DNA from: an uncultured Thermococci archaeon
GTDB taxonomy: Archaea; Methanobacteriota_B; Thermococci; Thermococcales; Thermococcaceae
DNA: 21,026 nt
Direction of reading: 5' to 3'
Assembly (NCBI GenBank): GCA_964615185.1
Contig: CAZTOS010000039.1
Location: 1 to 21,026 of the forward strand
This document shows, one piece after another, positions 1,851-13,880 of this stretch (positions are counted from its first letter, which is position 1; each line of letters begins with the position of its first letter). The notes below the pieces were generated by a model. It saw only the letters and a program-made list of their open reading frames with translations. It ran no database searches and was not told where the DNA came from. Made by a program: the position numbers and the translations under genes.

Positions 1851-2912
1851 CTATCTGAGTTTTAACCCCTCTGTTAGTCCTTTTTCAACTTTCTTCCCAA
1901 CTTTTGAGTTAACATAAGAATCTAATGAGCACACATGAGCGAATACGTCTTCGAGGGTTACTGTCTCGTTTTGAATGTCGATGACGTCATAATTTGTTAG
2001 GATTGCGAGGATATCCTTCAGATGATCTTGTTTAATGTAGATTTCCAAGTACGTGAAACCGTTTTGAGTATAAACTTTAATCTTCTCTGTTATCCCGGTA
2101 AAGTCATCAACTTCAACTTTGCCCTTGAGTTTGACCAACAGCTTCCTATCTATTTTTAAGGCTTGGAACTTTTCGACTAATTCTTTCGGCTTGCCTTCAG
2201 CGATTTTCTTCTTGTTAAAAATTAGAACTCTATCACATAACACTTCAGCCTCATTCAAATTATGTGTAGTTAGTATTATTGTTGTTCTAAATTCTTTAGA
2301 GAGTTCTAAAATGGCATTCCAGACTTCTCTTCTTGTAAAAACGTCTAAGTAAACTGTTGGCTCATCTAAAATTAAAGCTTCAGGCTGAATTATTAGCGGC
2401 AGTGCAAGATAAACTTTCTGCCTCATGCCTGCAGAAAGCTTTTGATACCATTCATTCCTCTTGTCCTTGAGATTCAAAAGCTCCAAAGCATAGTTAATCC
2501 TCTTTTCAGCTTCAACTTTAGAAATCCCCCAGAGCTCTGCAATAAATTTCAAGTTCTTCTCCACGCTTACACGCCATTGAAAAAGTCCAAACAAATCCCT
2601 CTCCCCACCAAAAATCGTGAATATTCTGCCCTTGATTTTATCATGCTCCCTCACTGAATCATAACCATTGATGTAAAGATTACCCCGAGTCGGAATTACT
2701 AATGCATTGGCAATCTTGCAGAAGGTTGTCTTTCCAGCACCATTAGGACCCAGAAGACCGAAAATCTCACCCTCTTTAACCTTGAAATTCAAATCAATCA
2801 AGGCTGGAATTTCTTCTCTAGGTTTCCCAAGAAAATCTCTCAAACTTTTCAGGTCAAAGAGCGATTTTATTGGTGAGGGATAAAACTTAGTCAAGTTAAC
2901 TGACTCAATCAT
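1851..2912 (-). CDS. ABC transporter ATP-binding protein (ABC-2/DrrA-like exporter)
   Basis: Walker A GPNGAGKT, signature LSAGMRQ, Walker B LILDEPT, H-loop TTH, and a C-terminal ACT-like extension ending TLEDVF. Confidence 0.95.
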   Translation of the reverse strand: MIESVNLTKFYPSPIKSLFDLKSLRDFLGKPREEIPALIDLNFKVKEGEIFGLLGPNGAGKTTFCKIANALVIPTRGNLYINGYDSVREHDKIKGRIFTIFGGERDLFGLFQWRVSVEKNLKFIAELWGISKVEAEKRINYALELLNLKDKRNEWYQKLSAGMRQKVYLALPLIIQPEALILDEPTVYLDVFTRREVWNAILELSKEFRTTIILTTHNLNEAEVLCDRVLIFNKKKIAEGKPKELVEKFQALKIDRKLLVKLKGKVEVDDFTGITEKIKVYTQNGFTYLEIYIKQDHLKDILAILTNYDVIDIQNETVTLEDVFAHVCSLDSYVNSKVGKKVEKGLTEGLKLR

Positions 2913-3087
2913 ATGTATTCCCTGTCATTAATTGATGAAATTACTTATAAATATTGCTGTTGTTTTTCTTTATTAATGGTTTCACTTTATTTATAAATAA
3001 GTTTCATAGATTTATAAATCAGTTGCAGTAAAACTTATTTATCGTTTCATCGAAAATGTGAATGCAAAAACTTAGGGGGTGTTGTGA
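2913..3087. promoter_or_regulatory. Divergent promoter region (ABC ATPase / precursor operon)
   Basis: Very AT-rich. TATA-like cores ACTTATAAAT (2943-2952) and ATTTATAAAT (2989-2998, 3010-3019). BRE/TATA-like AAACTTATTTAT at 3031-3042 (+) with its inverse at 2993-3004. G-rich RBS AGGGGGT at ~3074-3080. Confidence 0.65.
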
Positions 3088-3276
3088 ATGAAGATTGAGA
3101 TATTGAAAGTGGAAAATGGGAAGATTGTTGAGCCAGAGGACATGGTTGCTTGTGTTATGGGAGGATGTGGTGGAGGGTATGGTGATTGTATAGGGTATGG
3201 AAACTGCCCAACCGTAGGGGATAGGTGTGATAGACCCGAAGGAATACCATGTGCTTTTGGCCTTGTTGATCCATGA
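3088..3276 (+). CDS. Putative RiPP precursor peptide (62 aa, Cys/Gly-rich core)
   Basis: Preceded by an RBS. Charged leader MKIEILKVENGKIVEPEDMVA, then a core with Cys22/27/34/40/47/55 and tandem GYGDC-I-GYGNC. First gene upstream of several RRE-rSAM/SPASM genes. Confidence 0.85.
   Translation: MKIEILKVENGKIVEPEDMVACVMGGCGGGYGDCIGYGNCPTVGDRCDRPEGIPCAFGLVDP
3175..3210 (+). repeat. Degenerate 18-nt tandem unit in precursor core (GYGDCI / GYGNCP)
   Basis: gggtatggtgattgtata | gggtatggaaactgccca. Confidence 0.6.
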
Positions 3277-3288
3277 GTAATGTCTGTA

Positions 3289-3310
3289 AATTTCTTTATT
3301 TCTCTTTTCT
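3289..3310 (+). terminator. Possible oligo-T (partial) terminator after the precursor gene
   Basis: Pyrimidine run tttctttatttctcttttct shortly after the stop, typical of archaeal intrinsic terminators. Confidence 0.45.
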
Positions 3311-3331
3311 ACAAGGGGGGTCGTAACTAAA

Positions 3332-4771
3332 ATGGACAAAACAACTTATCGAGTAAATCCATATTTATTGTTCACGAAATTACAGGATAATATGTACTTA
3401 GTAGTAAATGTTTTAGACAAAACATGTATTAAATGCGATAAAGAGCTTTTTGATGTTTTAAGAAATAGAGATGTGTCTAAAATACCAGAAGACATACAGA
3501 GAGTACTTTACGAAAATAAGATTTTAATTCCAAAAAACATAGGTGATATCGAGTATTTAGAGTCGAAGATTTACAGAAACTCCAACAATAACAATAAAAT
3601 TACTAACAATGTGATCTTAACTAAGTTTGAATTCATCGTGACATGGCAATGTAATTTTTCATGTTCTTACTGTTTTGAAAATAAAGACAAAACTTCTTTG
3701 TGGGGTGGCCTAACTACAAAGCATGTGGATAAAGCTTTTGAATTTATTGACCAATACAGCACTCATAATTTCCCCCTACATATTGGACTAATGGGTGGTG
3801 AGCCATTATTACCCAGTTATAAACAAGTGGTATCCAAAATTTTTAAGAACGTTCAAGAGAGGAATGGAAAAATTACAATTATAACTAACGGATCCACAAT
3901 AGATAAATATCTTGATCTAATTAGCAAATATAATGATTACATAGAGAGGATACAAGTGACATTAGATGGTACAAGAGATGTACACGACAAAAGAAGGCCC
4001 TTTAAAGGGGGAATTGGGAGTTTTGATAAAATAGTTTCAAACATAGACAGTCTCTTAAGAATTGGATTTAAAAAAGTGAGAATTGTAATGAATGTAGATC
4101 ACGAAAATTTAGATGACGTACCCAATTTTATTCAATTCTTAGAGCAGAAAGGATGGCTAGGGAACTTCAATATTCTAATAACAACAGTAGAAAGTTATGG
4201 AAACATTAGAGCTGAAAAATTCAACCATTATAAAACAAGTAGAGAGCGTATAATAAAAAAACTATTTGAATATTTTTATGAGCATCCAGAATTGTTAAGA
4301 TACATTCATGTGGATGATAACCGAGGAAGTATGAGAGTACTTTATTCACTGATAATAGAAGGAAAAATTCCTAATCCAACATTGTATCATTGTGCGGGAA
4401 TAGCTGGGATTGGAGGCAGTTTTTCTCCGGATGGCAAGGTATATCCATGTGCTGCATTTGCAGAGGGACAATTATATCCTATTGGAGAATACTACCCCAA
4501 ACAGAAATTATACGCAAAGCAGTTATCTGCCTTAAGGAAGCGTAATACTCTAAACCTTAGAAAATGTTACAGTTGTAATCTTTTGCCTATTTGTGCAGGG
4601 GGATGCCCCATTATGGGCCTAAGTTATGAAGAATATCAGAGGCTTAAAATAGGGAAGTGCAATCTCCTAGAATGTACCACATGTTTAGGCAAAGAGATCA
4701 TACTGGAGGAAGGAGTTTTATATTATAACTTCAAACAGAAGTTAAAAGAAGAGAGGAGGATACAGGAATGA
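3332..4771 (+). CDS. Radical SAM/SPASM peptide maturase 1 with N-terminal RRE-like domain
   Basis: CNFSCSYC (CX3CX2C), GGEP, TNG, VTLDG...HD. SPASM C-x13-G-x4-C (HCAG...GKVYPC) and CYSC-x5-C-x3-C...C. About 90-aa winged-helix-like N-terminus. Confidence 0.93.
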   Translation: MDKTTYRVNPYLLFTKLQDNMYLVVNVLDKTCIKCDKELFDVLRNRDVSKIPEDIQRVLYENKILIPKNIGDIEYLESKIYRNSNNNNKITNNVILTKFEFIVTWQCNFSCSYCFENKDKTSLWGGLTTKHVDKAFEFIDQYSTHNFPLHIGLMGGEPLLPSYKQVVSKIFKNVQERNGKITIITNGSTIDKYLDLISKYNDYIERIQVTLDGTRDVHDKRRPFKGGIGSFDKIVSNIDSLLRIGFKKVRIVMNVDHENLDDVPNFIQFLEQKGWLGNFNILITTVESYGNIRAEKFNHYKTSRERIIKKLFEYFYEHPELLRYIHVDDNRGSMRVLYSLIIEGKIPNPTLYHCAGIAGIGGSFSPDGKVYPCAAFAEGQLYPIGEYYPKQKLYAKQLSALRKRNTLNLRKCYSCNLLPICAGGCPIMGLSYEEYQRLKIGKCNLLECTTCLGKEIILEEGVLYYNFKQKLKEERRIQE

Positions 4772-6411
4772 GAAATATTTTACTCAGAGTGATGGTTATT
4801 TACTTAGTAATTTTCTCTTTGCCAACAGCCACATCACTTGGGAACACCCAAAACTTCCCAAAAGTGATTGTTAAGATAAACCCCAACCTTGAATTGTTTG
4901 CTGTGGTGTATATTCTGACATTTAATGGCAGTGATGATTTTATAATTGCTCCTCAAAGCTATGTTGATGACGTTTTGACGTACTTTGCCCCCTACAAGGA
5001 TCATGTAGCAGTGAAGTCGATGCAACAAATGTTTCCCAAAGACCTGCCTAATTATATCAAAGATGAAAACTTATGGAAATGGGCAAGCAGTTTAGCAGTT
5101 AGAGAATACCTAGAAGATCAAGAAGACTTATCTGGTTTCTATGCTGAGCTTTCAGATTTTGCCAGGGAGAGTAACTTCATGAAGTTCTATAATGCCCATA
5201 AGGGTGAATATGAAAAAGCACTTATCTCAATTCAGAATGTTTTTAAAGAGTGGGACTTTATTAAAGAGCTTGAGAATCGTTCTGGAAAGAAATACGCTGA
5301 GTATCGAGTCGAGCTTTCATATTCCCTTTTCATTCACCTCCACTCACGCCACATACTAACCAAAGCTTACATGATTGGATCTATACCGAGGAGTTATTTA
5401 GACAATCTGCGTTACACTGGCTTGCCAAACATTCAAGCAATCAAAGACTATATGTTTAGGGCTTTCTTCATCCACGAGTTTGCTCATGCATTTTTGGATT
5501 CTGATAGGCTTGGCATGTCATCAGAGTACCGCTTCATCTATCAAAAAGTTTTAGAAGAGCTTCCTTTTACGGCATATAATCTGGATTTTTCCACAAGTGG
5601 GGCATATCTAAACGAAAACTTGGTTGAGGCTTTTACCCATTATTATCTTGCAGAACACTACAACTCTACCATCGCAGAGTATCTCATTCTGAAAGATGCA
5701 ACTATCGGCTATGTTCTTGTTGAGGATTTGGCTAAAGCATTTCAAGAAAACATTTCATTCAGTCAGATACCGGAAGTTGTGGGAAAGCTGGTAACGAAAG
5801 ACAACCTAAGCAGATACTTTAATTCAAGAATGCCCGTAAATGGGTTTTGGGCAGTAAATAGAATTTACAAAGATAAGAGGGTCATCATAGTTTACGGGAC
5901 GCAGAATCCGGATGAGAGGGGAAATGAATATGATAAGGAGTCTGCACTAATGCTTGCTAATTGGTTGAGAAGTGCGGGGATATCGGTTGAAGTTAAGGGT
6001 GATAACGAACTCACAAATGAAGACCTTCAGAGCAATTTAGTAGTAATTGGAGGGCCTGGAGCAAATGAATTAACTAAGAACCTAACCAAAGAACTTGTGG
6101 TGAAATTTTCTTTTAACGGCGACTGGAAGCTTGTAAGAAACTTCACGGCTGTTGAAAATCCAATTTCGTTCATCTTTTCAAACGAAAGTATTAAGGTGGT
6201 TAAATCAGATGCCGTAGTTCCTCAAGAATATCCATTAGGAGTCGTTCAAACCTTAAGAAACCCATGGAACAACGAGAAGTTCATAATCGTGATTGCCGGC
6301 ATTGATAGGTACTGCACAAGAAAAATGCTCCGCTACTTTAACTACAACAGTAGTTATCTAATCAGAGGGAAAACGTTCTTCGAGGAGGGATTTTATATTC
6401 AAAGAATCTAA
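4768..6411 (+). CDS. Secreted HEXXH metallopeptidase-like protein (DUF4932-like) with C-terminal S-layer-type domain
   Basis: N-terminal hydrophobic signal, NPNLELFAVV, IHEFAH (His codon 5473) with downstream NENLVEA, and C-terminal NLVVIGGPGAN...RNPWN...IAGIDR. Start overlaps the previous stop (ATGA). Confidence 0.75.
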   Translation: MRNILLRVMVIYLVIFSLPTATSLGNTQNFPKVIVKINPNLELFAVVYILTFNGSDDFIIAPQSYVDDVLTYFAPYKDHVAVKSMQQMFPKDLPNYIKDENLWKWASSLAVREYLEDQEDLSGFYAELSDFARESNFMKFYNAHKGEYEKALISIQNVFKEWDFIKELENRSGKKYAEYRVELSYSLFIHLHSRHILTKAYMIGSIPRSYLDNLRYTGLPNIQAIKDYMFRAFFIHEFAHAFLDSDRLGMSSEYRFIYQKVLEELPFTAYNLDFSTSGAYLNENLVEAFTHYYLAEHYNSTIAEYLILKDATIGYVLVEDLAKAFQENISFSQIPEVVGKLVTKDNLSRYFNSRMPVNGFWAVNRIYKDKRVIIVYGTQNPDERGNEYDKESALMLANWLRSAGISVEVKGDNELTNEDLQSNLVVIGGPGANELTKNLTKELVVKFSFNGDWKLVRNFTAVENPISFIFSNESIKVVKSDAVVPQEYPLGVVQTLRNPWNNEKFIIVIAGIDRYCTRKMLRYFNYNSSYLIRGKTFFEEGFYIQRI

Positions 6412-6424
6412 GAGGTGACTCACT

Positions 6425-7726
6425 ATGAGACTCTCTTCTCTTGTGAATATCGTCCAACTAAATGAAACAGACTACCTTATCTTAAAACCTAACTCTCGAT
6501 CTTTAATAGTTGACAGAGAAGTTATTGAAGCAATTAGGAATTTAAATAATACTCCAAAAGAAGTGGTAGAAGTTCTTACAAAAGAGGGATTTATTACAAA
6601 CTTAAAGCCGGAAGAAGAAATTGCATTATTTTACAGTTTTTTAGAGCAAAATGAAGCTCGAATAAAGGGTAAATACAGTATCGCAATAACGTACAACTGC
6701 AACTTTGCTTGTACTTACTGTTATGAAAGAGGTATAAATAAAGAGGACACAATTAGCAGAGAAATGATTGATAAATTTTATGAAATCGCTGTAAATGATA
6801 AAGATAAGATACGGGAAAGCATTGGAATTACGGGTGGAGAACCTTTAATGTATGAAAATGCTGAAATTTTAGAATATCTTCTAAGAGAGGGTAAGAAAAA
6901 AGGATTTGCTTTCGATATCATAACCAATGGTTATGAGCTGATTGAATTCTTAGACATGCTAAAGAAAAACAATGTAAAAATTGTAAAAGTAACGTTGGAT
7001 GGCCCCAAAGAAATTCACGATAAAAGGAGAATTCACAGGAAAGATAGGGAGACATATGATAAAATTTTGGAGGGAATTAAAGAAGCTCAAGATAAAGGAA
7101 TTAAGGTAACAATCTTCGTAAATGTTGATGCTCAAAACCTCAACTATACTCCCAAACTCATTAATGAACTTAAAGAAAATGAAATAGACGCCACAATTTT
7201 ATTAAAAAGGGTTAATGAACGCTCAGGAGCAAAATATCCCTATACTTTAACTTCAAAAGAGTACTTTGAGAGAGTGTTCAAAATAATAAGGGAATACAAA
7301 CTAAAAGAAGTCAAGGTTTATGAATTCGATATATTTTATGCAAACCTTTTCAATGCTCTCTCATCAGGAACTCCAATTCCCGCAAGGTTAAGATACTGCG
7401 GAGGAGTTACCCCTGGTGTTTTGATATTTGATCCAAGAGGCGACATTTATACCTGTGATTACGTTCTGGGAGATAAAAGGTTCAGCGTTGGCACTTATTA
7501 CCCAGAGTTTAAATTGAACATAAACTATTACCTCTGGAAGAATAGAACAGCAAGCAAGATAAAGGAATGCTTTAACTGCAGGCTATCTCTTTTGTGCTCT
7601 GGTGGATGTCCTATGGAAGCATATAGAGCCCATGGAACATTATATAAGCCGTACTGTGAAGAAACTAAGTACTTGTTTGAGTATATAAAACTCTGGCTCT
7701 CTCTAAGGAGGGAGGATAGTGATTAG
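6425..7726 (+). CDS. Radical SAM/SPASM peptide maturase 2 with N-terminal RRE-like domain
   Basis: RBS GAGGTGA, CNFACTYC, GGEP, TNG, VTLDG...HD, and SPASM YCGG...GDIYTC, CFNC-x5-C-x3-C...YC. Confidence 0.93.
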   Translation: MRLSSLVNIVQLNETDYLILKPNSRSLIVDREVIEAIRNLNNTPKEVVEVLTKEGFITNLKPEEEIALFYSFLEQNEARIKGKYSIAITYNCNFACTYCYERGINKEDTISREMIDKFYEIAVNDKDKIRESIGITGGEPLMYENAEILEYLLREGKKKGFAFDIITNGYELIEFLDMLKKNNVKIVKVTLDGPKEIHDKRRIHRKDRETYDKILEGIKEAQDKGIKVTIFVNVDAQNLNYTPKLINELKENEIDATILLKRVNERSGAKYPYTLTSKEYFERVFKIIREYKLKEVKVYEFDIFYANLFNALSSGTPIPARLRYCGGVTPGVLIFDPRGDIYTCDYVLGDKRFSVGTYYPEFKLNINYYLWKNRTASKIKECFNCRLSLLCSGGCPMEAYRAHGTLYKPYCEETKYLFEYIKLWLSLRREDSD

Positions 7727-9055
7727 CCCTTTTGTTGTCAAAATAAAACTCTGCAATAGTCAATATCTGCTGATAAACACCAAAAACGGATCAATGATAA
7801 AAGTTGACAGTGAAGCATTAAATGAACTTGAGAAGGAGAACCCCGAATTGGACAACAACATTTTATCCATTCTAAGGCAGTCTGGTTTCATAATCGATAA
7901 ACCTGATAATAAAGAGGTCAGAAAATATTTTAATTGGCTTTGGGATAATATTTACTCAAACAATTATCACATCATTGTTGTAACATACACTTGCAACCTT
8001 AATTGTTCCTACTGTTACCAAAGAAACATAAAAAGGGAGAAAGACTTAACAAAAGAGCAAGTGGATAAAATCTTTGAGGCTATTTTAAAGTTTGATAATG
8101 GGGAAGTTGACAATAGAAAAAGCAAAATCCGAAATATCCAGCTTTATGGTGGAGAACCTCTTCAAAAAAGACTCTATAAAATAATTGAGTACATTCTTGA
8201 AATTGGCTCATCATATGGATATAAATTCATAATTATGACAAATGCCATTGACTTGGATTATTATGTACCTCTTCTTGAGTCTTATAGGGATTCAATAGCT
8301 TTGCTACAAACCACAATTGACGGTCCGGAGGAAGTTCATGACTCATATCGATATAATGGGGCATTTGAGAAAACGATTTCAAACATTGAAAAAATTATCG
8401 AGGTGGGATTTAGAGTTGATTTGAGAACTAACGTTGGCAAAGAAAATGCTAAGTATCTAGAAGAACTTGCAAGATTTTATATTGAGAAAGGGTGGACAAA
8501 TAAAGAAAATGTTCGGTTTTATTTAGCTCCGGTTAGGGACAAATTTGGCCCTTGCTATTTTAACCCGGATCTATCCTACGATGAAATCCTAAATTTATTT
8601 AGAAGTGAATTAATAACCAAGGTTTTTGGAATATTTAATGGTCTCTTTGTCAAGTTCTATGAAGGAATCTGGATTCCACAGTTCTATAATTGTCCAGCTC
8701 ATTACCGACAGATATTCTACGATCCTTATGGTGATTTATATGCATGCATGAGTGCTTTGAGAATGAAAGAGCTTAGCATTGGAAATACTATCCAGTGCTT
8801 GAACTAAATGAGAACTTTCATTTGTACAGAAAACGGAGCATCTTTAACATAGAAAAATGCAAAAACTGTGAATTTGCTCTGCTCTGTGGAGGAGGATGTA
8901 GCTACAATGCATTTCTAAAAACTGGCAATTTAGCCAATCCAGACTGTTATAGCATGAAAATATTAAAAGAGAGATTTTTCCAACTATTTAAATACCCAGA
9001 AGTTCTTGAATATTATTTTAAGAGGAAACAAAAGGGGGATGAGTATGAACCATGA
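7719..9055 (+). pseudogene. Radical SAM/SPASM peptide maturase 3, split by a 1-nt frameshift at ~8783-8785 (true pseudogene or sequencing error)
   Basis: ORF 7719..8807 has CNLNCSYC, GGEP and the first half of SPASM (NCPAH...GDLYAC). ORF 8795..9055 has CKNC-x5-C-x3-C...DC. Adding one A to GGAAATAC gives SIGKYYPVLELN, matching paralog IGEYYP / VGTYYP. Confidence 0.88.
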
Positions 9056-9446
9056 TAGCTAATCTTAAAAAGTGTACCCATGTTGGGAGATGATTGGAAT
9101 CGAAGATTACCAAATTGGAGAGATACAGAAAGATGGAACAATGAAAATTACCCCATTTTATTATGATGTAAAATCTAGGGATCCTACAGAATATGAAGAG
9201 TGTAAGAATTGCAAACTTTTGCCAGTTTGCATGGGAGGATGTCCAATGGAATCAATTCGAAAAAACGGACATCCTAATGGTCCGGGATGCGACATAAATA
9301 AATATGTTTGGAAAGAAGGGTTAAAATTTTATTTAATGAGAAAGTATTCCAACCTATTTAGCAAGGAGAGTCTAATGAAAAATTTGGGTCGAATCCCAGA
9401 TAAAAACGAACAAGTGTGGAACTTCACACTTTCAACAAGAGAATAA
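9052..9446 (+). pseudogene. SPASM-only remnant of a fourth radical SAM maturase
   Basis: The frame from 9069 reads KVYPCWEM...CKNCKLLPVCMGGCP...GC, i.e. it begins mid-SPASM (cf. GKVYPC in maturase 1). There is no CX3CX2C, and in-frame TAA stops lie at 9060 and 9066. Confidence 0.75.
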
Positions 9447-9493
9447 TAGGCATTAAAAACAACGAAAACAACTGTACACCGAGGTGTTGGATA

Positions 9494-11266
9494 ATGGAGA
9501 GGAAAGTATTTGCTATATTCTTAATCTCTTTTCTTGTGCTTTCTATGGGATATGTTTTATGGGGCAATAAATCAGTTCCATCATCACTAAAACAAGAGAA
9601 ATTGAAACTTTACATTGAATATCCTTCAAGGGTTGAAGAAAAAATTATACATGGAGCTTTTCCTCATTTTCTGACGAATTATTCTGTTATTGCAAACATA
9701 ACTGTTATTACCCTCAATCACCACCTAAAGGTAAGCTGGAATTTTGTAATTAAGGATAGAACTGGAAACAGCACTATACTTTACATAAAGTCTCCAAGTT
9801 TTGGTAAATTAAGCCTGACGCTTGAAGGAAAACAAGTCAACATATCAAAGCTCTCTCGATATTCATTACCTCAGTATTACGCTCAAGTAATACTTTTGAA
9901 TGTAACATATCCAAAGGATATTCCAATACATGGAGCACTGGAGTATGAGACAACAGTGAATTCTTCGTTCACCCAATATATACTCGGTGATTTTGTGAAA
10001 TTTTCCCCAATTTATTATCCCGAAACATATCCTTCCATAATGGTTTTTTCAACTGAGTGGCTTCTTCCGATATCACCTGCAGGAATACTTGTTAACTCAA
10101 ATTCCCTCTATAATCCAATTCCAAAAGTGTATAATCTCACTCTCATTCTTCCTTCAACCTATACCGTACTCTCCGACTATTATCTACCCAAAATAGAACA
10201 CAAAGATAAAAAATTAGTAGTAACATTCAGAAATGTTAAGCTCAATCCCACGAATTACCGGTTCATTTACATTTACAACCATGACCTTTTTCAAAAAACC
10301 GAAATTACTATTAGGAATGCCAAATTAATAGTTTACACTCCAAAGAAAAGTTATTTGGACTTCCAAGAACTCACAAATATCACAGCACAAATAGTCTGGC
10401 ACTATATAAAACGCTTAAGCATGCTTCCTTATCAGGAAATTCATGTATTCTTTAATCCAGATATTATATTTGGAGAAGAATTTGAATACTTTGAGAATGG
10501 AATTGTAGTAGTTGGACTTCGGACACATTATGGATTTTTGGAAAATGAGGGCATTTTACCAACAATTGCTCATGAGCTTGCCCATTTGTGGTTTGGGAGT
10601 TATGCCCATCTTGGTCGACTCGATGAGAGCCTTACCACCTTCATGGAATTTGATGTGGATAAGCTTACTGGTGAAAGCTTGAAAGAAAGAGAAAAACAGG
10701 CAGTAAGGGACTCCAAGCGTTATAAGAGAACGTTGGCTCAAGTTTACCAAGAGGGAATACCTGACCCACAAATAAGACTTGGTGTTGAATATTATAAGGG
10801 TGCTTTTGTCTTCCGCTCTCTTCAGTTTGTTCTTGGCAATGAGACTTTCTTCAAGGGCTTAAGGGAGCTTTTAAGAGAATGCCATAATAAAGAGTGTAAT
10901 TTAACGGATGTTCAAAATGTTTTTGAAGAAGTTAGTGGACAAGATTTAGATTGGTTCTTCAAAGAGTGGTTTTACACTACTAAGGTTCCTGATTACGAGG
11001 TTGGAAACTTGAATTTAGTTCAAAAAAGTGGAAGATATTCCCTGACCTTTGAAATTATTGACAAAAACAACTTCACAATGCCCCTCGAAATTGAGGTAAT
11101 AACATCAAAAGAAAAACTCGTTAAGAAAGTTTGGATTAAAGGGAAAGCAAAGATAAGTTTTGAATTAAATGATAAACCAATAAAGATAACCCTCGATCCA
11201 AACGAATGGATAGTGAACGAAAACAAAAAATATAACATTGAGAGAATAGAGATAATAATTGAGTAA
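9494..11266 (+). CDS. Membrane-anchored/secreted M1-family (gluzincin) aminopeptidase
   Basis: Start moved to ATG 9494 (RBS GAGGTG at 9481). N-terminal TM/signal VFAIFLISFLVLSMGYVLW, HELAH (10571) with third ligand Glu in LDES, catalytic Tyr in YYKGAFVF, C-terminal LDPNEW beta domain. Confidence 0.88.
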   Translation: MERKVFAIFLISFLVLSMGYVLWGNKSVPSSLKQEKLKLYIEYPSRVEEKIIHGAFPHFLTNYSVIANITVITLNHHLKVSWNFVIKDRTGNSTILYIKSPSFGKLSLTLEGKQVNISKLSRYSLPQYYAQVILLNVTYPKDIPIHGALEYETTVNSSFTQYILGDFVKFSPIYYPETYPSIMVFSTEWLLPISPAGILVNSNSLYNPIPKVYNLTLILPSTYTVLSDYYLPKIEHKDKKLVVTFRNVKLNPTNYRFIYIYNHDLFQKTEITIRNAKLIVYTPKKSYLDFQELTNITAQIVWHYIKRLSMLPYQEIHVFFNPDIIFGEEFEYFENGIVVVGLRTHYGFLENEGILPTIAHELAHLWFGSYAHLGRLDESLTTFMEFDVDKLTGESLKEREKQAVRDSKRYKRTLAQVYQEGIPDPQIRLGVEYYKGAFVFRSLQFVLGNETFFKGLRELLRECHNKECNLTDVQNVFEEVSGQDLDWFFKEWFYTTKVPDYEVGNLNLVQKSGRYSLTFEIIDKNNFTMPLEIEVITSKEKLVKKVWIKGKAKISFELNDKPIKITLDPNEWIVNENKKYNIERIEIIIE

Positions 11267-11361
11267 TAAGACTCCGTCCTTTTAACCTTCGCTTTTTATT
11301 AATACTATATCAACAATATTAATAAATTCAAAGAAGATCCTGATAACTTTGTAGTAATGTT

Positions 11362-13866
11362 CTAACCCCCTCTTAACTTTCTCCCCTCCTCAAGCTCTCT
11401 CCTCAAAGTTCTTGCTTCGAACTCCGCTTTCTTTGCCCTAAACACCTTTGCAATTCTCTCAACTGCTTCAAGCTTCCTGATTATGCCGTCAAGCCACGTA
11501 AAGACGTCTCCGGGATAAAGAATTAGGCCATACATCTTTCTAAAATACTCGCTTATCTGAGTTGGATGCCTCCCTTCTCTTCTCAGCTCCATGATGCGGT
11601 CGCTTATTCTGTGCATCGCATACTCAGTGCACTCCTTTTCTTCACACATAAAGAAATCCTGATAAATCGTGAAGAGCCTCTCTTGAGCATTTGGACTAAG
11701 CTCTGGGATAACCCTATCGAGTTCCTCTAAAATCGAAGCAAAGCTTGGGGAAAAAATGTTAGCGCTCAGCCTTCCTCTAACTGCTCCTTCCAGCTCCCTC
11801 TGCAGAGTTCCGCTGAGATAAACATTTTCAAAAGGCGAAAGTTTGATTGCAATCTCCCTCGGACTCTTCTTTGCGAGGTTCTCTCTTATGAACTGAGCCT
11901 CATTTGGCAGTAAGAAGCTCATGCTGACAGCTCTTCCATAAGGTGTAACATTCACGAGCTTGCCCCTGAGTTTAACAAAATCATACTCTTCAAGCTTCTC
12001 CAAAACCCTTTCAGCACTTTGATTCGCTCCCAAACATCTGCTCTGGACTTCTTCTATATCATCCAGATATGAGAACACACATGCATGAGCCAAAACTTGG
12101 TCTTGCTCCAGCTCATCGCTCCACTCAAGGTAAACGGGTTCAATAGGTGCTGTTAACAGCTTAAATGCAACTTCATCTTCACTTTGCTCCATTTGAGCTG
12201 AGTATTTCTTCCCAGGCTCAATTATGAGGTAAACCTTTCCCTTCTCATGATAGAGAGGCCTCCCAGCTCTTCCAAGCATCTGGTGAAACTCTCTAACACT
12301 CAGCCACTTATTGCCCATTGCCAGGCTTTCAAAGATTACTTGTGAAGCTGGAAAATCAACCCCAGCTCCTAAAGCAGCTGTAGTTACAACAACATCAAGC
12401 ATCTGAGCTTGAAACTCCATCTCTGTGAGTTTCCTTTGATGATACGGCAATCCACTGTGATAGGGCTTTGCCTTCAATCCTCTGCTTGTTAAAAACGCAG
12501 CCAGCTCATGGCATCTCTTCCTTGAAAAGGTGAAAACTATAGTCTGACCTTTATAGCCTTGCTTCGATTTTCTCATAACCTCAGCTTTAGCCAGCTGAGC
12601 TATGTAATGCCATTTTTCACTTTCATTTCTTGCTAAAATGACGTGCCTCTCTAAGGCCACTGGTCTTTCATCATAGACAACCAACCTAAGCCCAAGCTCC
12701 TTTGCAAGCTCTTCGGGATTCCCAATTGTAGCACTCAGTCCAATGAACTGAGCTTTTGGATAGAGTCTCCTCAATCTTGCTATTAAACCATCCAATCTTG
12801 CTCCTCTCTCCTCGTCATCAATCATGTGGATCTCATCAATGACAATAGTCCCAACTTTTCCAATTTTTCTACCAGCTCTCAATAGATAATCAACTCCTTC
12901 ATAAGTTCCCACAATTATGTCGGCATCAATTCCCGTATCCACAACGACGAGCTCGTCTTTAGTCTTAATTCTGCTCATACCAACCCTTATGGCGACTCTT
13001 AAGCCAAGCTTAGAATATCTCCTCTTGAAATCCTCATATTTTTGATTTGCCAAAGCCACAAGGGGAACTAAAAAGAGCATCTTCTCTCCTTTTATTGCCT
13101 TAGGAACTCCAGCCAATTCTCCTATGAGGGTTTTCCCACTTGCTGTTGCTGAAACGATGAGAAGATTTTCCCCTTTTAACAAACCATGCTGAATAGCTAA
13201 GCTCTGAACTGGTAAAAGCTCCCTCACGCCCTCACTCCTTAACACATCTTTGAGCTCTTTCGGAATTTCAACCTCGTCAATGCTTAGTTTTTTGACTTTA
13301 ATCTTCTTTGGCTTAAGCTCATCCCATTTTGTAACTTCGGGATTTTTAGTTGGGTCAAATCTTGGGTCAAAAACCATTAGAACTTTATCCAAGTCTCTAA
13401 ATCGCTGTAAAAGCTTCTTTGCTTGGTCAAACATTCCTAAACTCCTAAACCTGTATCGAAGCTCATTTTTAAGCTCTTCCTCCGCACATTTCTCACATAT
13501 GTACTCGCTATGGAATTTTATTCTATTTCCTTCAGTTAAGACCGTTATCTTCCCATTGAGGAGACAAAAACGGCAGAGGTGAGCTTTTTCGACCCTCTTA
13601 TTTTGAAGCCTTACTTTAAAATATTCCTCCCACTCATCTGTATCTACCAAAACAATTCTCGCCTGCCTCAAAACCTTCTCAATCTCTTTGGGATTCCTAT
13701 ACTGGCTACCTTCAAGAACCTTAAACAAACGGTTGTCTCTCATAATTAGCCGGTAAATCCTATCAGCTTTTAGATTCTGCATCTGAGAAAGCTTTTCAGG
13801 TTCTTTTTCAACGTAATAAGCTTCGAGTTCATCCTTTTTTCTGCCTTTTTTGATTATAAAAAGCAT
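11362..13866 (-). CDS. Archaeal Ski2-like SF2 DExH helicase (ASH-Ski2 / DUF5814 type)
   Basis: ATASGKT, DEIH, SAT, QMLGRAGR; N-terminal CRFC...CEKC metal motif and C-terminal Cys pair. Start placed at ATG 13866 behind AGGTGA. Confidence 0.9.
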   Translation of the reverse strand: MLFIIKKGRKKDELEAYYVEKEPEKLSQMQNLKADRIYRLIMRDNRLFKVLEGSQYRNPKEIEKVLRQARIVLVDTDEWEEYFKVRLQNKRVEKAHLCRFCLLNGKITVLTEGNRIKFHSEYICEKCAEEELKNELRYRFRSLGMFDQAKKLLQRFRDLDKVLMVFDPRFDPTKNPEVTKWDELKPKKIKVKKLSIDEVEIPKELKDVLRSEGVRELLPVQSLAIQHGLLKGENLLIVSATASGKTLIGELAGVPKAIKGEKMLFLVPLVALANQKYEDFKRRYSKLGLRVAIRVGMSRIKTKDELVVVDTGIDADIIVGTYEGVDYLLRAGRKIGKVGTIVIDEIHMIDDEERGARLDGLIARLRRLYPKAQFIGLSATIGNPEELAKELGLRLVVYDERPVALERHVILARNESEKWHYIAQLAKAEVMRKSKQGYKGQTIVFTFSRKRCHELAAFLTSRGLKAKPYHSGLPYHQRKLTEMEFQAQMLDVVVTTAALGAGVDFPASQVIFESLAMGNKWLSVREFHQMLGRAGRPLYHEKGKVYLIIEPGKKYSAQMEQSEDEVAFKLLTAPIEPVYLEWSDELEQDQVLAHACVFSYLDDIEEVQSRCLGANQSAERVLEKLEEYDFVKLRGKLVNVTPYGRAVSMSFLLPNEAQFIRENLAKKSPREIAIKLSPFENVYLSGTLQRELEGAVRGRLSANIFSPSFASILEELDRVIPELSPNAQERLFTIYQDFFMCEEKECTEYAMHRISDRIMELRREGRHPTQISEYFRKMYGLILYPGDVFTWLDGIIRKLEAVERIAKVFRAKKAEFEARTLRRELEEGRKLRGG

Positions 13867-13880
13867 CAAAATCACCTTAG

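Follow-up and report, generated by a model that had tools for sequence, protein, structure and literature searches.

Described systems and their relation to the locus

Several families of RiPPs, peptides made on the ribosome and modified after translation, are comparable to the system considered here. SCIFF peptides, such as CteA with its maturase CteB, are short Cys-rich precursors encoded beside a radical S-adenosylmethionine (rSAM) enzyme which carries a SPASM domain and an N-terminal leader-binding domain, and their core is highly conserved. Freyrasin, a ranthipeptide, has repeated Cys-x3-Asp rings, and its enzyme PapB makes thioethers between Cys and the beta-carbon of Asp. Prochlorosins and cyanobactins combine a conserved leader with a hypervariable core, and one promiscuous enzyme serves many cores. 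Here we analyzed a stretch of 21,026 bp from an uncultured Thermococci archaeon, hereafter called the window, which is the whole of contig C39 of genome G000 (2.26 Mb, 95.6% complete) and in which an open reading frame (ORF) of 62 codons at 3088-3276 precedes a series of rSAM genes. It is very probable that this ORF encodes the precursor of the neighbouring rSAM enzymes, and the overall explanation that we favour, with moderate confidence, is that of a Thermococci-specific RiPP precursor which would be acted on by thioether-forming rSAM enzymes and whose tail is exchangeable together with one of them, rSAM1.

Within Archaea, CrpC of Methanococcus voltae is a SPASM rSAM enzyme with three [4Fe-4S] clusters and a RiPP recognition element (RRE), and it introduces ranthionine links into a Cys-rich substrate whose gene belongs to the same cluster (PMC13692751). 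By the description given there, CrpA is a Cys-rich protein and not a short leader-core peptide, one enzyme acts on it and there is no exchangeable module, all of which sets that system apart from the window. Subtilosin A-like sboA/albA clusters, which encode a Cys-containing peptide dependent on an rSAM enzyme, with an ABC transporter gene and a proposed bacterial transfer, have been described in Thermococcus celer and T. nautili (bioRxiv 10.64898/2026.07.27.741052). As far as that description goes, they belong to other species and contain a single AlbA-like enzyme, whereas the window precursor lacks a curated model and has a different leader. A 2025 survey describes archaeal rSAM RiPPs as predicted but uncharacterised, and archaeal RiPP chemistry as barely explored (PMC12144867). 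Our literature search (leader string, locus tags, and SPASM together with Thermococcus; preprint supplements fell outside it) gave no paper on the window peptide family, and no experimentally characterised rSAM-modified peptide from Thermococcales turned up in it.

The window resembles the SCIFF systems in having a short Cys-rich precursor beside rSAM/SPASM enzymes with a putative N-terminal leader-binding domain and, in the predicted complex described below, it resembles CteB in the leader lying on that domain and a Cys being placed at the SPASM cysteines. However, it is archaeal, its maturases are three to four paralogues where SCIFF has one, and its tail is hypervariable; the precursor matched no SCIFF model and the maturases scored 88-102 bits, below the cut-off of 425 (TIGR03973/TIGR03974). 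PapB was among the top three NCBIfam matches of rSAM1 and the top four of rSAM2, and the presence of Asp or Asn at +5/+6 of four of the six window Cys recalls the freyrasin rings. In contrast to those rings, the spacing is x4-5 and not x3, and the PapB scores (NF047865, cut-off 340) were only 123, 127 and 63 bits for rSAM1, rSAM2 and rSAM3, respectively. The best-scoring curated families for all three enzymes were CefB (NF038107, "Cys-every-fifth") and TIGR04463 (rSAM enzymes beside very short Cys-rich peptides), on which the literature search yielded no paper; with 87-148 bits against cut-offs of 525-600, the window enzymes are not members of either. Finally, a nearly invariant leader with a hypervariable core is shared with prochlorosins and cyanobactins, but the window core moves together with a diverged rSAM1 of its own, and two further enzymes remain constant. 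New here are the precursor family, a set of three to four maturase paralogues in a hyperthermophilic archaeon, and the fact that tail and rSAM1 are exchanged together on a constant background.

The precursor peptide and its family

The precursor gene heads an operon on the plus strand which continues with rSAM1, a DUF4932 gene, rSAM2, rSAM3, an rSAM relic and an M1-like peptidase gene; upstream of it lie a divergent ABC transporter ATPase gene and a second M1-like peptidase gene (Table 1). The precursor gene is separated from the downstream rSAM1 gene by 55 nt, and a Shine-Dalgarno-like run, GGGGGTG (3075-3081), is found 6 nt 5' of its ATG. An earlier sequence-only reading of this stretch had taken the ORF for a RiPP precursor of the adjacent paralogous rSAM/SPASM enzymes, which was supported by the cluster layout, the domain and motif content and the model of the complex. 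The translation also matched exactly the peptide quoted there, and the Cys spacing of 5-7-6-7-8 was recovered from the positions of the Cys (22, 27, 34, 40, 47 and 55). Comparison of leader codons 1-17 with related loci gave five synonymous and no nonsynonymous differences with respect to the locus of genome G029, four and one with respect to that of genome G020, and one and none with respect to contig L021. From this predominance of synonymous differences it follows that the frame is translated and that purifying selection acts on the leader. An ORF of 106 aa on the opposite strand (3019-3339) was considered as a gene and rejected, because the substitution pattern fits the plus frame and beyond codon 18 there is no conservation.

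Homologues were searched with a word-based method over 5.8 billion proteins, which gave 6 relatives, and with a profile over 1.84 billion cluster representatives, which gave 5 more. With one further variant on metagenome contig L024, the family has 12 further members in all. NF865_05890 of T. aggregans and OCC_12861 of T. litoralis are identical to the ORFs of G029 and G020, respectively. All members have a leader of the form MK[IV]EILKV..G.I..P, then M-x-x-C-x(3-4)-C, mostly a Gly run, and last a tail that is hypervariable and abounds in Cys and aromatic residues. Across the alignment of 13 sequences, the columns M1, K2, L6, K7, V8, G11, I13, P16, M19, C22, M24, G26 and C27 are invariant, and G29 and G32 are almost so. 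The tails after the Gly run, of 13-32 residues, could not be aligned; each of the 13 contains 2-6 Cys and 1-5 aromatic residues. In the window the part for leader recognition comprises residues 1-17 (3088-3138), the invariant block with the Gly run lies at 3142-3177 and the hypervariable tail, Y31-P62, at 3178-3273. No Pfam or NCBIfam model was found for the precursor or for the first 6 homologues at E values up to 10. To judge from these searches, the family is Thermococci-specific and uncharacterised.

Of the six Cys emphasized in the earlier reading, C22 and C27 are therefore invariant in the family, and the other four are not. The end of the leader, placed near Ala21 in that reading, became doubtful, since conservation continues through M19-C22-M24-G26-C27 and the Gly run up to about Gly30; C22 and C27 may be part of the product or of a linker. 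The leader of a second subtype reads MKVEILKV.DGIIEPL (P0128-P0132; L040 8001-8174) and is followed by the same Met/Cys block and other tails. Its copy at L040 8001-8174, in a metagenome-assembled genome named "Thermococci archaeon", adjoins an rSAM gene and a divergent helix-turn-helix (HTH) gene.

The peptide family is rare and patchy in its distribution. A match was found in 5 of 97 Thermococcaceae genomes, including G000 and one degenerate copy, and in none of the seven other genomes of the same genus that were searched; 24 genomes of other families gave no convincing precursor match in a first search (best E value 0.137). Horizontal transfer of the cluster between genera was considered in view of the seven negative congeners. 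Nevertheless, the helicase gene that flanks the cluster in the window also adjoins the G020 locus, with 76% DNA identity, and this common flank indicates one chromosomal site for the cluster in both, however patchy its distribution.

The region upstream of the gene is conserved as well. The stretch 2936-3087, together with the leader codons that follow, showed 87-90% DNA identity to the loci of G029, G020 and L021, and about 150 bp 5' of the precursor are nearly invariant across the four loci. Between its TATA-like boxes there is an 11-nt inverted repeat, ATAAATCAGTT/AACTTATTTAT (3014-3024 and 3032-3042), which is a likely operator, perhaps for the MarR/TrmB-like HTH protein of the cluster, whose gene is absent from the window. 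The same region is 82% identical to that of a second cluster in G020, where, at L019 13173-14878, an intact fourth rSAM gene is accompanied by its own very Cys-rich precursor of 75 aa (L019 14651-14878, minus strand). This precursor is preceded by a copy of the promoter found in the window, and the pair is a sister system with shared regulation.

An exchangeable module of tail and rSAM1

Alignment of the loci at the DNA level revealed that conservation is interrupted inside the precursor gene. With respect to G029, identity was 87% at 2936-3141, no match was obtained at 3142-6423 and identity was 82% at 6424-11062. With respect to L021, 2936-3176 is 90% identical and 4864-11533 is 96% identical, and the intervening 3177-4863 is replaced, with rSAM1 being 41% identical in protein and the tails unrelated. 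The left border of this module coincides with the codons of the Gly run, and the right border with a conserved NPNLELF island in the DUF4932 gene. Among five loci, pairwise protein identity was 35-45% for rSAM1, 36-85% for DUF4932 and 75-97% for rSAM2. The rSAM2 of the window has 84% identity with that of G029 and 97% with that of L021, and the window rSAM3 has 89% identity with its G029 counterpart. Tail and rSAM1 are thus swapped between loci as one unit, on a background of conserved leader, rSAM2 and rSAM3.

The assemblies of individual runs pointed in the same direction. One contig of X1, the likely source run, covers exactly 3020-4914 and forks at both ends, and an alternative flank common to X1 and X2 is attached at 4885. 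This fork pattern suggests that variants of the module coexist, a weak point as it comes from contigs only.

The radical SAM enzymes and the predicted chemistry

The enzymes rSAM1, rSAM2 and rSAM3 are 26-29% identical to one another, and each of them contains the SAM-cluster motif, seven SPASM Cys and an N-terminal domain with a D-x-E motif. In an alignment of 10 rSAM enzymes from four loci, the motif CX3CX2C (C107, C111 and C114), GGEP, the D-x-E residues D36 and E38, and the SPASM residues C354, C373, C412, C415, C421 and C425 were invariant; C448 was present in 90% of the rows. The best NCBIfam neighbours of the rSAM enzymes were maturases of Cys-rich peptides, namely CefB, TIGR04463, PapB, Clo7bot and SCIFF. 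For rSAM1 the first places were taken by CefB (148 bits) and TIGR04463 (139 bits), followed by PapB, all far below the cut-offs. The nearest solved structure was the same for the three enzymes, CteB (5wgg), with E values of 3e-13, 2.7e-25 and 1.5e-10 for rSAM1, rSAM2 and rSAM3, respectively. In the Pfam scan no PqqD match was found in the rSAM enzymes, and no B12 or methyltransferase domain in the window proteins.

The complex of rSAM1 with the peptide was then modelled with three [4Fe-4S] clusters, SAM and custom alignments, together with three controls. The interface score ipSAE was 0.72 (0.73, 0.71 and 0.72 in the separate runs) and that of the best control 0.00; of 157 solved complexes 116 attain the ipSAE mark applied, as do 2 of 215 mismatched pairs. 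The runs had at least 52% of contacts in common, with a model confidence (pLDDT) of the partner of at least 42. The modelled contacts link leader residues 1-6, 8 and 11-13 to residues 30-39, 42 and 51-62 of rSAM1, including D36 and E38, and Cys40 of the peptide to the SPASM residues C354, C373 and C425. This model supports likeness to CteB, not a given chemistry.

From these data, thioether cross-linking is the most likely chemistry, and the presence of at least one thioether made by these rSAM enzymes would be moderately likely. In each rSAM enzyme the leader would dock, as a strand, on the RRE-like domain at the N-terminus, a substrate Cys would be offered to the first auxiliary Fe-S cluster, and the 5'-deoxyadenosyl radical would take a hydrogen from the acceptor carbon, with formation of an S-C thioether of the sacti- or ranthionine type. 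It was also suggested in the earlier reading that the paralogues divide the Cys sites among them. Under this proposal rSAM1 would work on the strain-specific tail (C34, C40, C47 and C55 here), where the likeliest acceptors would be the Asp or Asn at +5/+6, in a PapB-like manner, and rSAM2 and rSAM3 would work on the invariant C22/C27 block. Such a division of labour obtained indirect support, as rSAM1 co-varies with the tail while rSAM2 and rSAM3 are conserved with the leader and with C22/C27, and we put it forward tentatively. More speculative, and somewhat unlikely, is the fullest form of the idea: a modular RiPP made of a constant leader, Cys pair and two rSAM enzymes, into which tail and rSAM1 would be plugged through recombination in two places, the codons of the Gly run and the protease island, so that each strain would make a different, multiply cross-linked peptide, possibly with mixed linkages (here thioethers and a YGD/YGN cyclophane).

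A peptide that binds a metal or cluster, or that forms disulfides, with no C-S links, the rSAM enzymes being engaged in epimerisation, methylation or another reaction, would also account for part of the data: the invariant C-x(3-4)-C pair beside the Gly run could bind a metal, and the chemistry of an rSAM enzyme is not revealed by its sequence. Nevertheless, both the closest relatives and the closest solved structure belong to thioether formers, the model puts a tail Cys at the auxiliary-cluster cysteines and the window proteins are devoid of B12 and methyltransferase domains in Pfam, and we regard this explanation as very unlikely.

The tandem Tyr-Gly motifs

The earlier reading had pointed to the tandem motifs GYGDC (residues 30-34) and GYGNC (residues 36-40), and to an 18-nt duplicated unit. 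An exact head of 8 nt does exist in that unit, but only 12 of its 18 positions are identical and the repeat search of the window did not report it. When the 41-residue core was shuffled with its composition preserved, a 5-mer recurring with at least four of five residues was obtained in 4.9% of the shuffles, and a tandem match as good as the one observed in 10%. The tandem motif is therefore near chance level in a core so rich in Gly and Cys. Moreover, it is strain-specific: YG[DN], and even plain YG, was found in none of the 12 homologues, and the YG[D/N]C motif is neither a trait of the family nor the key to the system. Under the refuting condition set in the earlier reading, the interpretations as a triceptide or as a splicease substrate are consequently left without basis as general mechanisms.

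Triceptide cyclophanes are formed at motifs of the type aromatic-x-X, which YGD and YGN fit. C-C cyclophanes at Tyr31-Gly-Asp33 and Tyr37-Gly-Asn39, alone or in a hybrid with thioethers, would agree with these two motifs of the tail, with the aromatic residues present in all 13 variable tails and with a weak similarity of the rSAM enzymes to YhhB (45-78 bits), GrrM/OscB (66 bits) and DynA (98-114 bits). DynA makes C-C and C-N links. However, the scores for YhhB and GrrM/OscB are far below the respective cut-offs of 445 and 310, the families of Cys-rich peptides score higher, the residues that are invariant are Cys and not Tyr, and a [FWY]-x-[DN] motif occurs in only 2 of the 12 homologous tails. 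This alternative is, in our opinion, quite unlikely; if such a cyclophane is made, it would be specific to this strain.

As for a PlpX-type splicease, which would cut out a tyramine unit at Tyr-Gly and leave an alpha-keto-beta-amino acid, the precursor does contain two Tyr-Gly dipeptides. Spliceases need a PlpY partner, and, apart from peptidases and parts of a transporter, Pfam revealed no partner of unknown type among the window proteins. Together with the lack of Tyr-Gly in the homologues and with the fact that all three rSAM enzymes are of the SPASM type, have seven auxiliary-cluster Cys and group with cross-linking maturases, this makes splicing scarcely credible.

Points against the thioether proposal and erosion of the locus

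Several observations weigh against the proposal of thioether-forming enzymes that act on the precursor with a division of labour, or against the cluster being functional in this genome. First of all, the chemistry is not readable from sequence, and the similarities of rSAM2 (PapB 127 bits, anSME 115, DynA 114) leave it unsettled. The success of the complex model may reflect memory of a solved CteB-peptide complex, and the fold of the peptide itself within the complex is uncertain (pLDDT 42-44). The Cys-to-Asp/Asn spacing is a post hoc observation, which 1.2% of the shuffles also reached, and other tails of the family do not have it. In addition, G020 keeps C22 and C27 with rSAM2 and rSAM3 broken, which weakens the division of labour put forward above. 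The remaining points concern the integrity of the locus. In G029 and L021, genes for an ABC-2 permease and an HTH protein lie between the precursor and the ABC ATPase, and a comparison with L018 10236-11367 shows them to be cleanly absent at 2913-2935 of the window; rSAM3 is split into ORFs of 362 and 86 aa, as the A-run at 8783-8785 is one A short; and of the fourth rSAM a relic is left, 86% identical to residues 350-466 of the intact 472-aa enzyme of G020.

These defects could mean that the cluster is decaying in G000 and gives no mature exported product, the peptide being unmodified, partly modified or trapped. G029 has the same operon with an intact rSAM3 (431 aa) plus a divergent permease-HTH-ATPase operon, and rSAM3 is also intact in L021 (441 aa); no close permease was found elsewhere in G000, where the best match is 24% identical, in a genome that is only 95.6% complete. 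Broken genes are found in related loci too. Nevertheless, the precursor, rSAM1, DUF4932 and rSAM2 genes are intact, the leader is under purifying selection, and contig L020, 99.97% identical to the window, has four A's at the rSAM3 site and an open frame, so that the split may stem from an error of assembly or from a very recent mutation. No indel was reported at this site from the contigs of the runs; at 8783-8786 no listed contig piece of runs X2 and X3, both with depth in the bin, spans the site, and X1 gave no cover. Decay of the cluster in this genome is thus unlikely on balance, but it is the alternative to which we give most weight, and the thioether proposal remains the preferred one.

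The same relic of the fourth rSAM is present in G029 and L021. In G020 (L019 4142-6760), rSAM2 is broken into ORFs of 166 and 261 aa, rSAM3 is truncated and a segment is inverted. In G117 (L017) the peptide is without leader and rSAM1 has an internal deletion. Downstream of the cluster in L021 (7164-8793), the M1-like peptidase gene is broken into ORFs of 177 and 362 aa. Decay is frequent at this locus. Contig L020 extends 2.5 kb to the left of the window (L020 1-2539), where the second M1-like peptidase gene, full length in this contig (666 aa), is preceded by a fusion ORF of 633 aa in which the tail of an rSAM1-type gene is joined to a second DUF4932 paralogue; the short leftmost ORF before it may be a transposase fragment. 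The whole extension looks like the wreck of a second cluster.

Proteases and other genes of the window

The DUF4932 protein contains a HEFxH motif (HEFAH here) which all six full-length homologues retain, and YLNE is found downstream of it. Its AlphaFold2 model, built on 7 sequences, had a pLDDT of 81. Residues 28-353 resemble the catalytic domains of M1 aminopeptidases, a middling match (Z 7-8.8 over 160-181 residues) of which the best example was 8sw0 (Z 8.8, root-mean-square deviation 3.9 Å over 181 residues). Residues 357-527 resemble the S-layer anchoring domain of Methanococcus voltae (Z 12.9, root-mean-square deviation 2.8 Å, 125 residues). A Foldseek search of the model against the PDB matched the C-terminal domain alone. 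M1 peptidases remove leaders in class III lanthipeptides. The predicted zincin-like fold, the S-layer anchor and the two membrane-anchored M1-like peptidases point to removal of the leader outside the cell: the product would be exported, and the surface-anchored DUF4932 protein, a putative zincin, and the M1-like peptidases would then cut off the leader. The M1-like peptidase at the end of the operon is 71% identical to the copy of the G029 cluster. Features of the window are collected in Table 1.

Table 1. Location of the features of the cluster and of its flanks in the 21,026-bp window, and evidence for each.
Feature	Coordinates	Strand	Evidence
Promoter/5' region of precursor gene	2936-3087	+	A/T-rich TATA-like boxes, 11-nt inverted repeat, ribosome-binding-site run
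Precursor peptide gene, 62 aa	3088-3276	+	Family conservation, synonymous-dominated leader divergence
Exchangeable module: precursor tail, rSAM1, DUF4932 signal-peptide codons	3177-4863	+	DNA homology breaks
rSAM1, radical SAM/SPASM maturase, 479 aa, variable paralogue	3332-4771	+	Pfam Radical_SAM, Fer4_12
DUF4932 protein, 547 aa, hydrophobic N-terminus	4768-6411	+	Pfam DUF4932, S_layer_C
rSAM2, radical SAM/SPASM maturase, 433 aa, conserved paralogue	6425-7726	+	Pfam, NCBIfam, structure match
rSAM3, radical SAM/SPASM maturase, split 7719-8807 + 8795-9055	7719-9055	+	NCBIfam, homologue comparison
Fourth-rSAM relic, SPASM C-terminus alone, 124 aa	9072-9446	+	Match to intact G020 rSAM
M1-like zinc peptidase, 616 aa, N-terminal membrane anchor, HELAH	9416-11266	+	Pfam Peptidase_M1
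ABC transporter ATPase, divergent from precursor	1851-2912	-	Pfam/NCBIfam; 91% identical to G029 ATPase
Second M1-like peptidase, 5' end cut by contig end	3-1850	+	Pfam; 81% identical to M1-like gene of G020 locus
DEAD/DEAH helicase with C-terminal DUF5814, flanks cluster	11362-13875	-	76% DNA identity to G020 flank

Implications

The family constitutes a natural experiment in substrate specificity, with the same leader, differing tails, one co-varying enzyme and two constant ones, and the architecture of the module makes the choice of residues for cross-linking by the rSAM enzymes directly testable by module swaps. It also offers thermostable maturases and a cultured carrier with a complete cluster (the G029 locus, whose peptide bears the name of Thermococcus aggregans at NCBI). 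If the modular proposal is true, it would be a case of natural exchange of enzyme-plus-substrate cassettes that diversifies peptides. The likely role of the product would be in strain-specific competition or signalling and, if the products are antagonistic, they would represent a new kind of archaeocin from hydrothermal vents.

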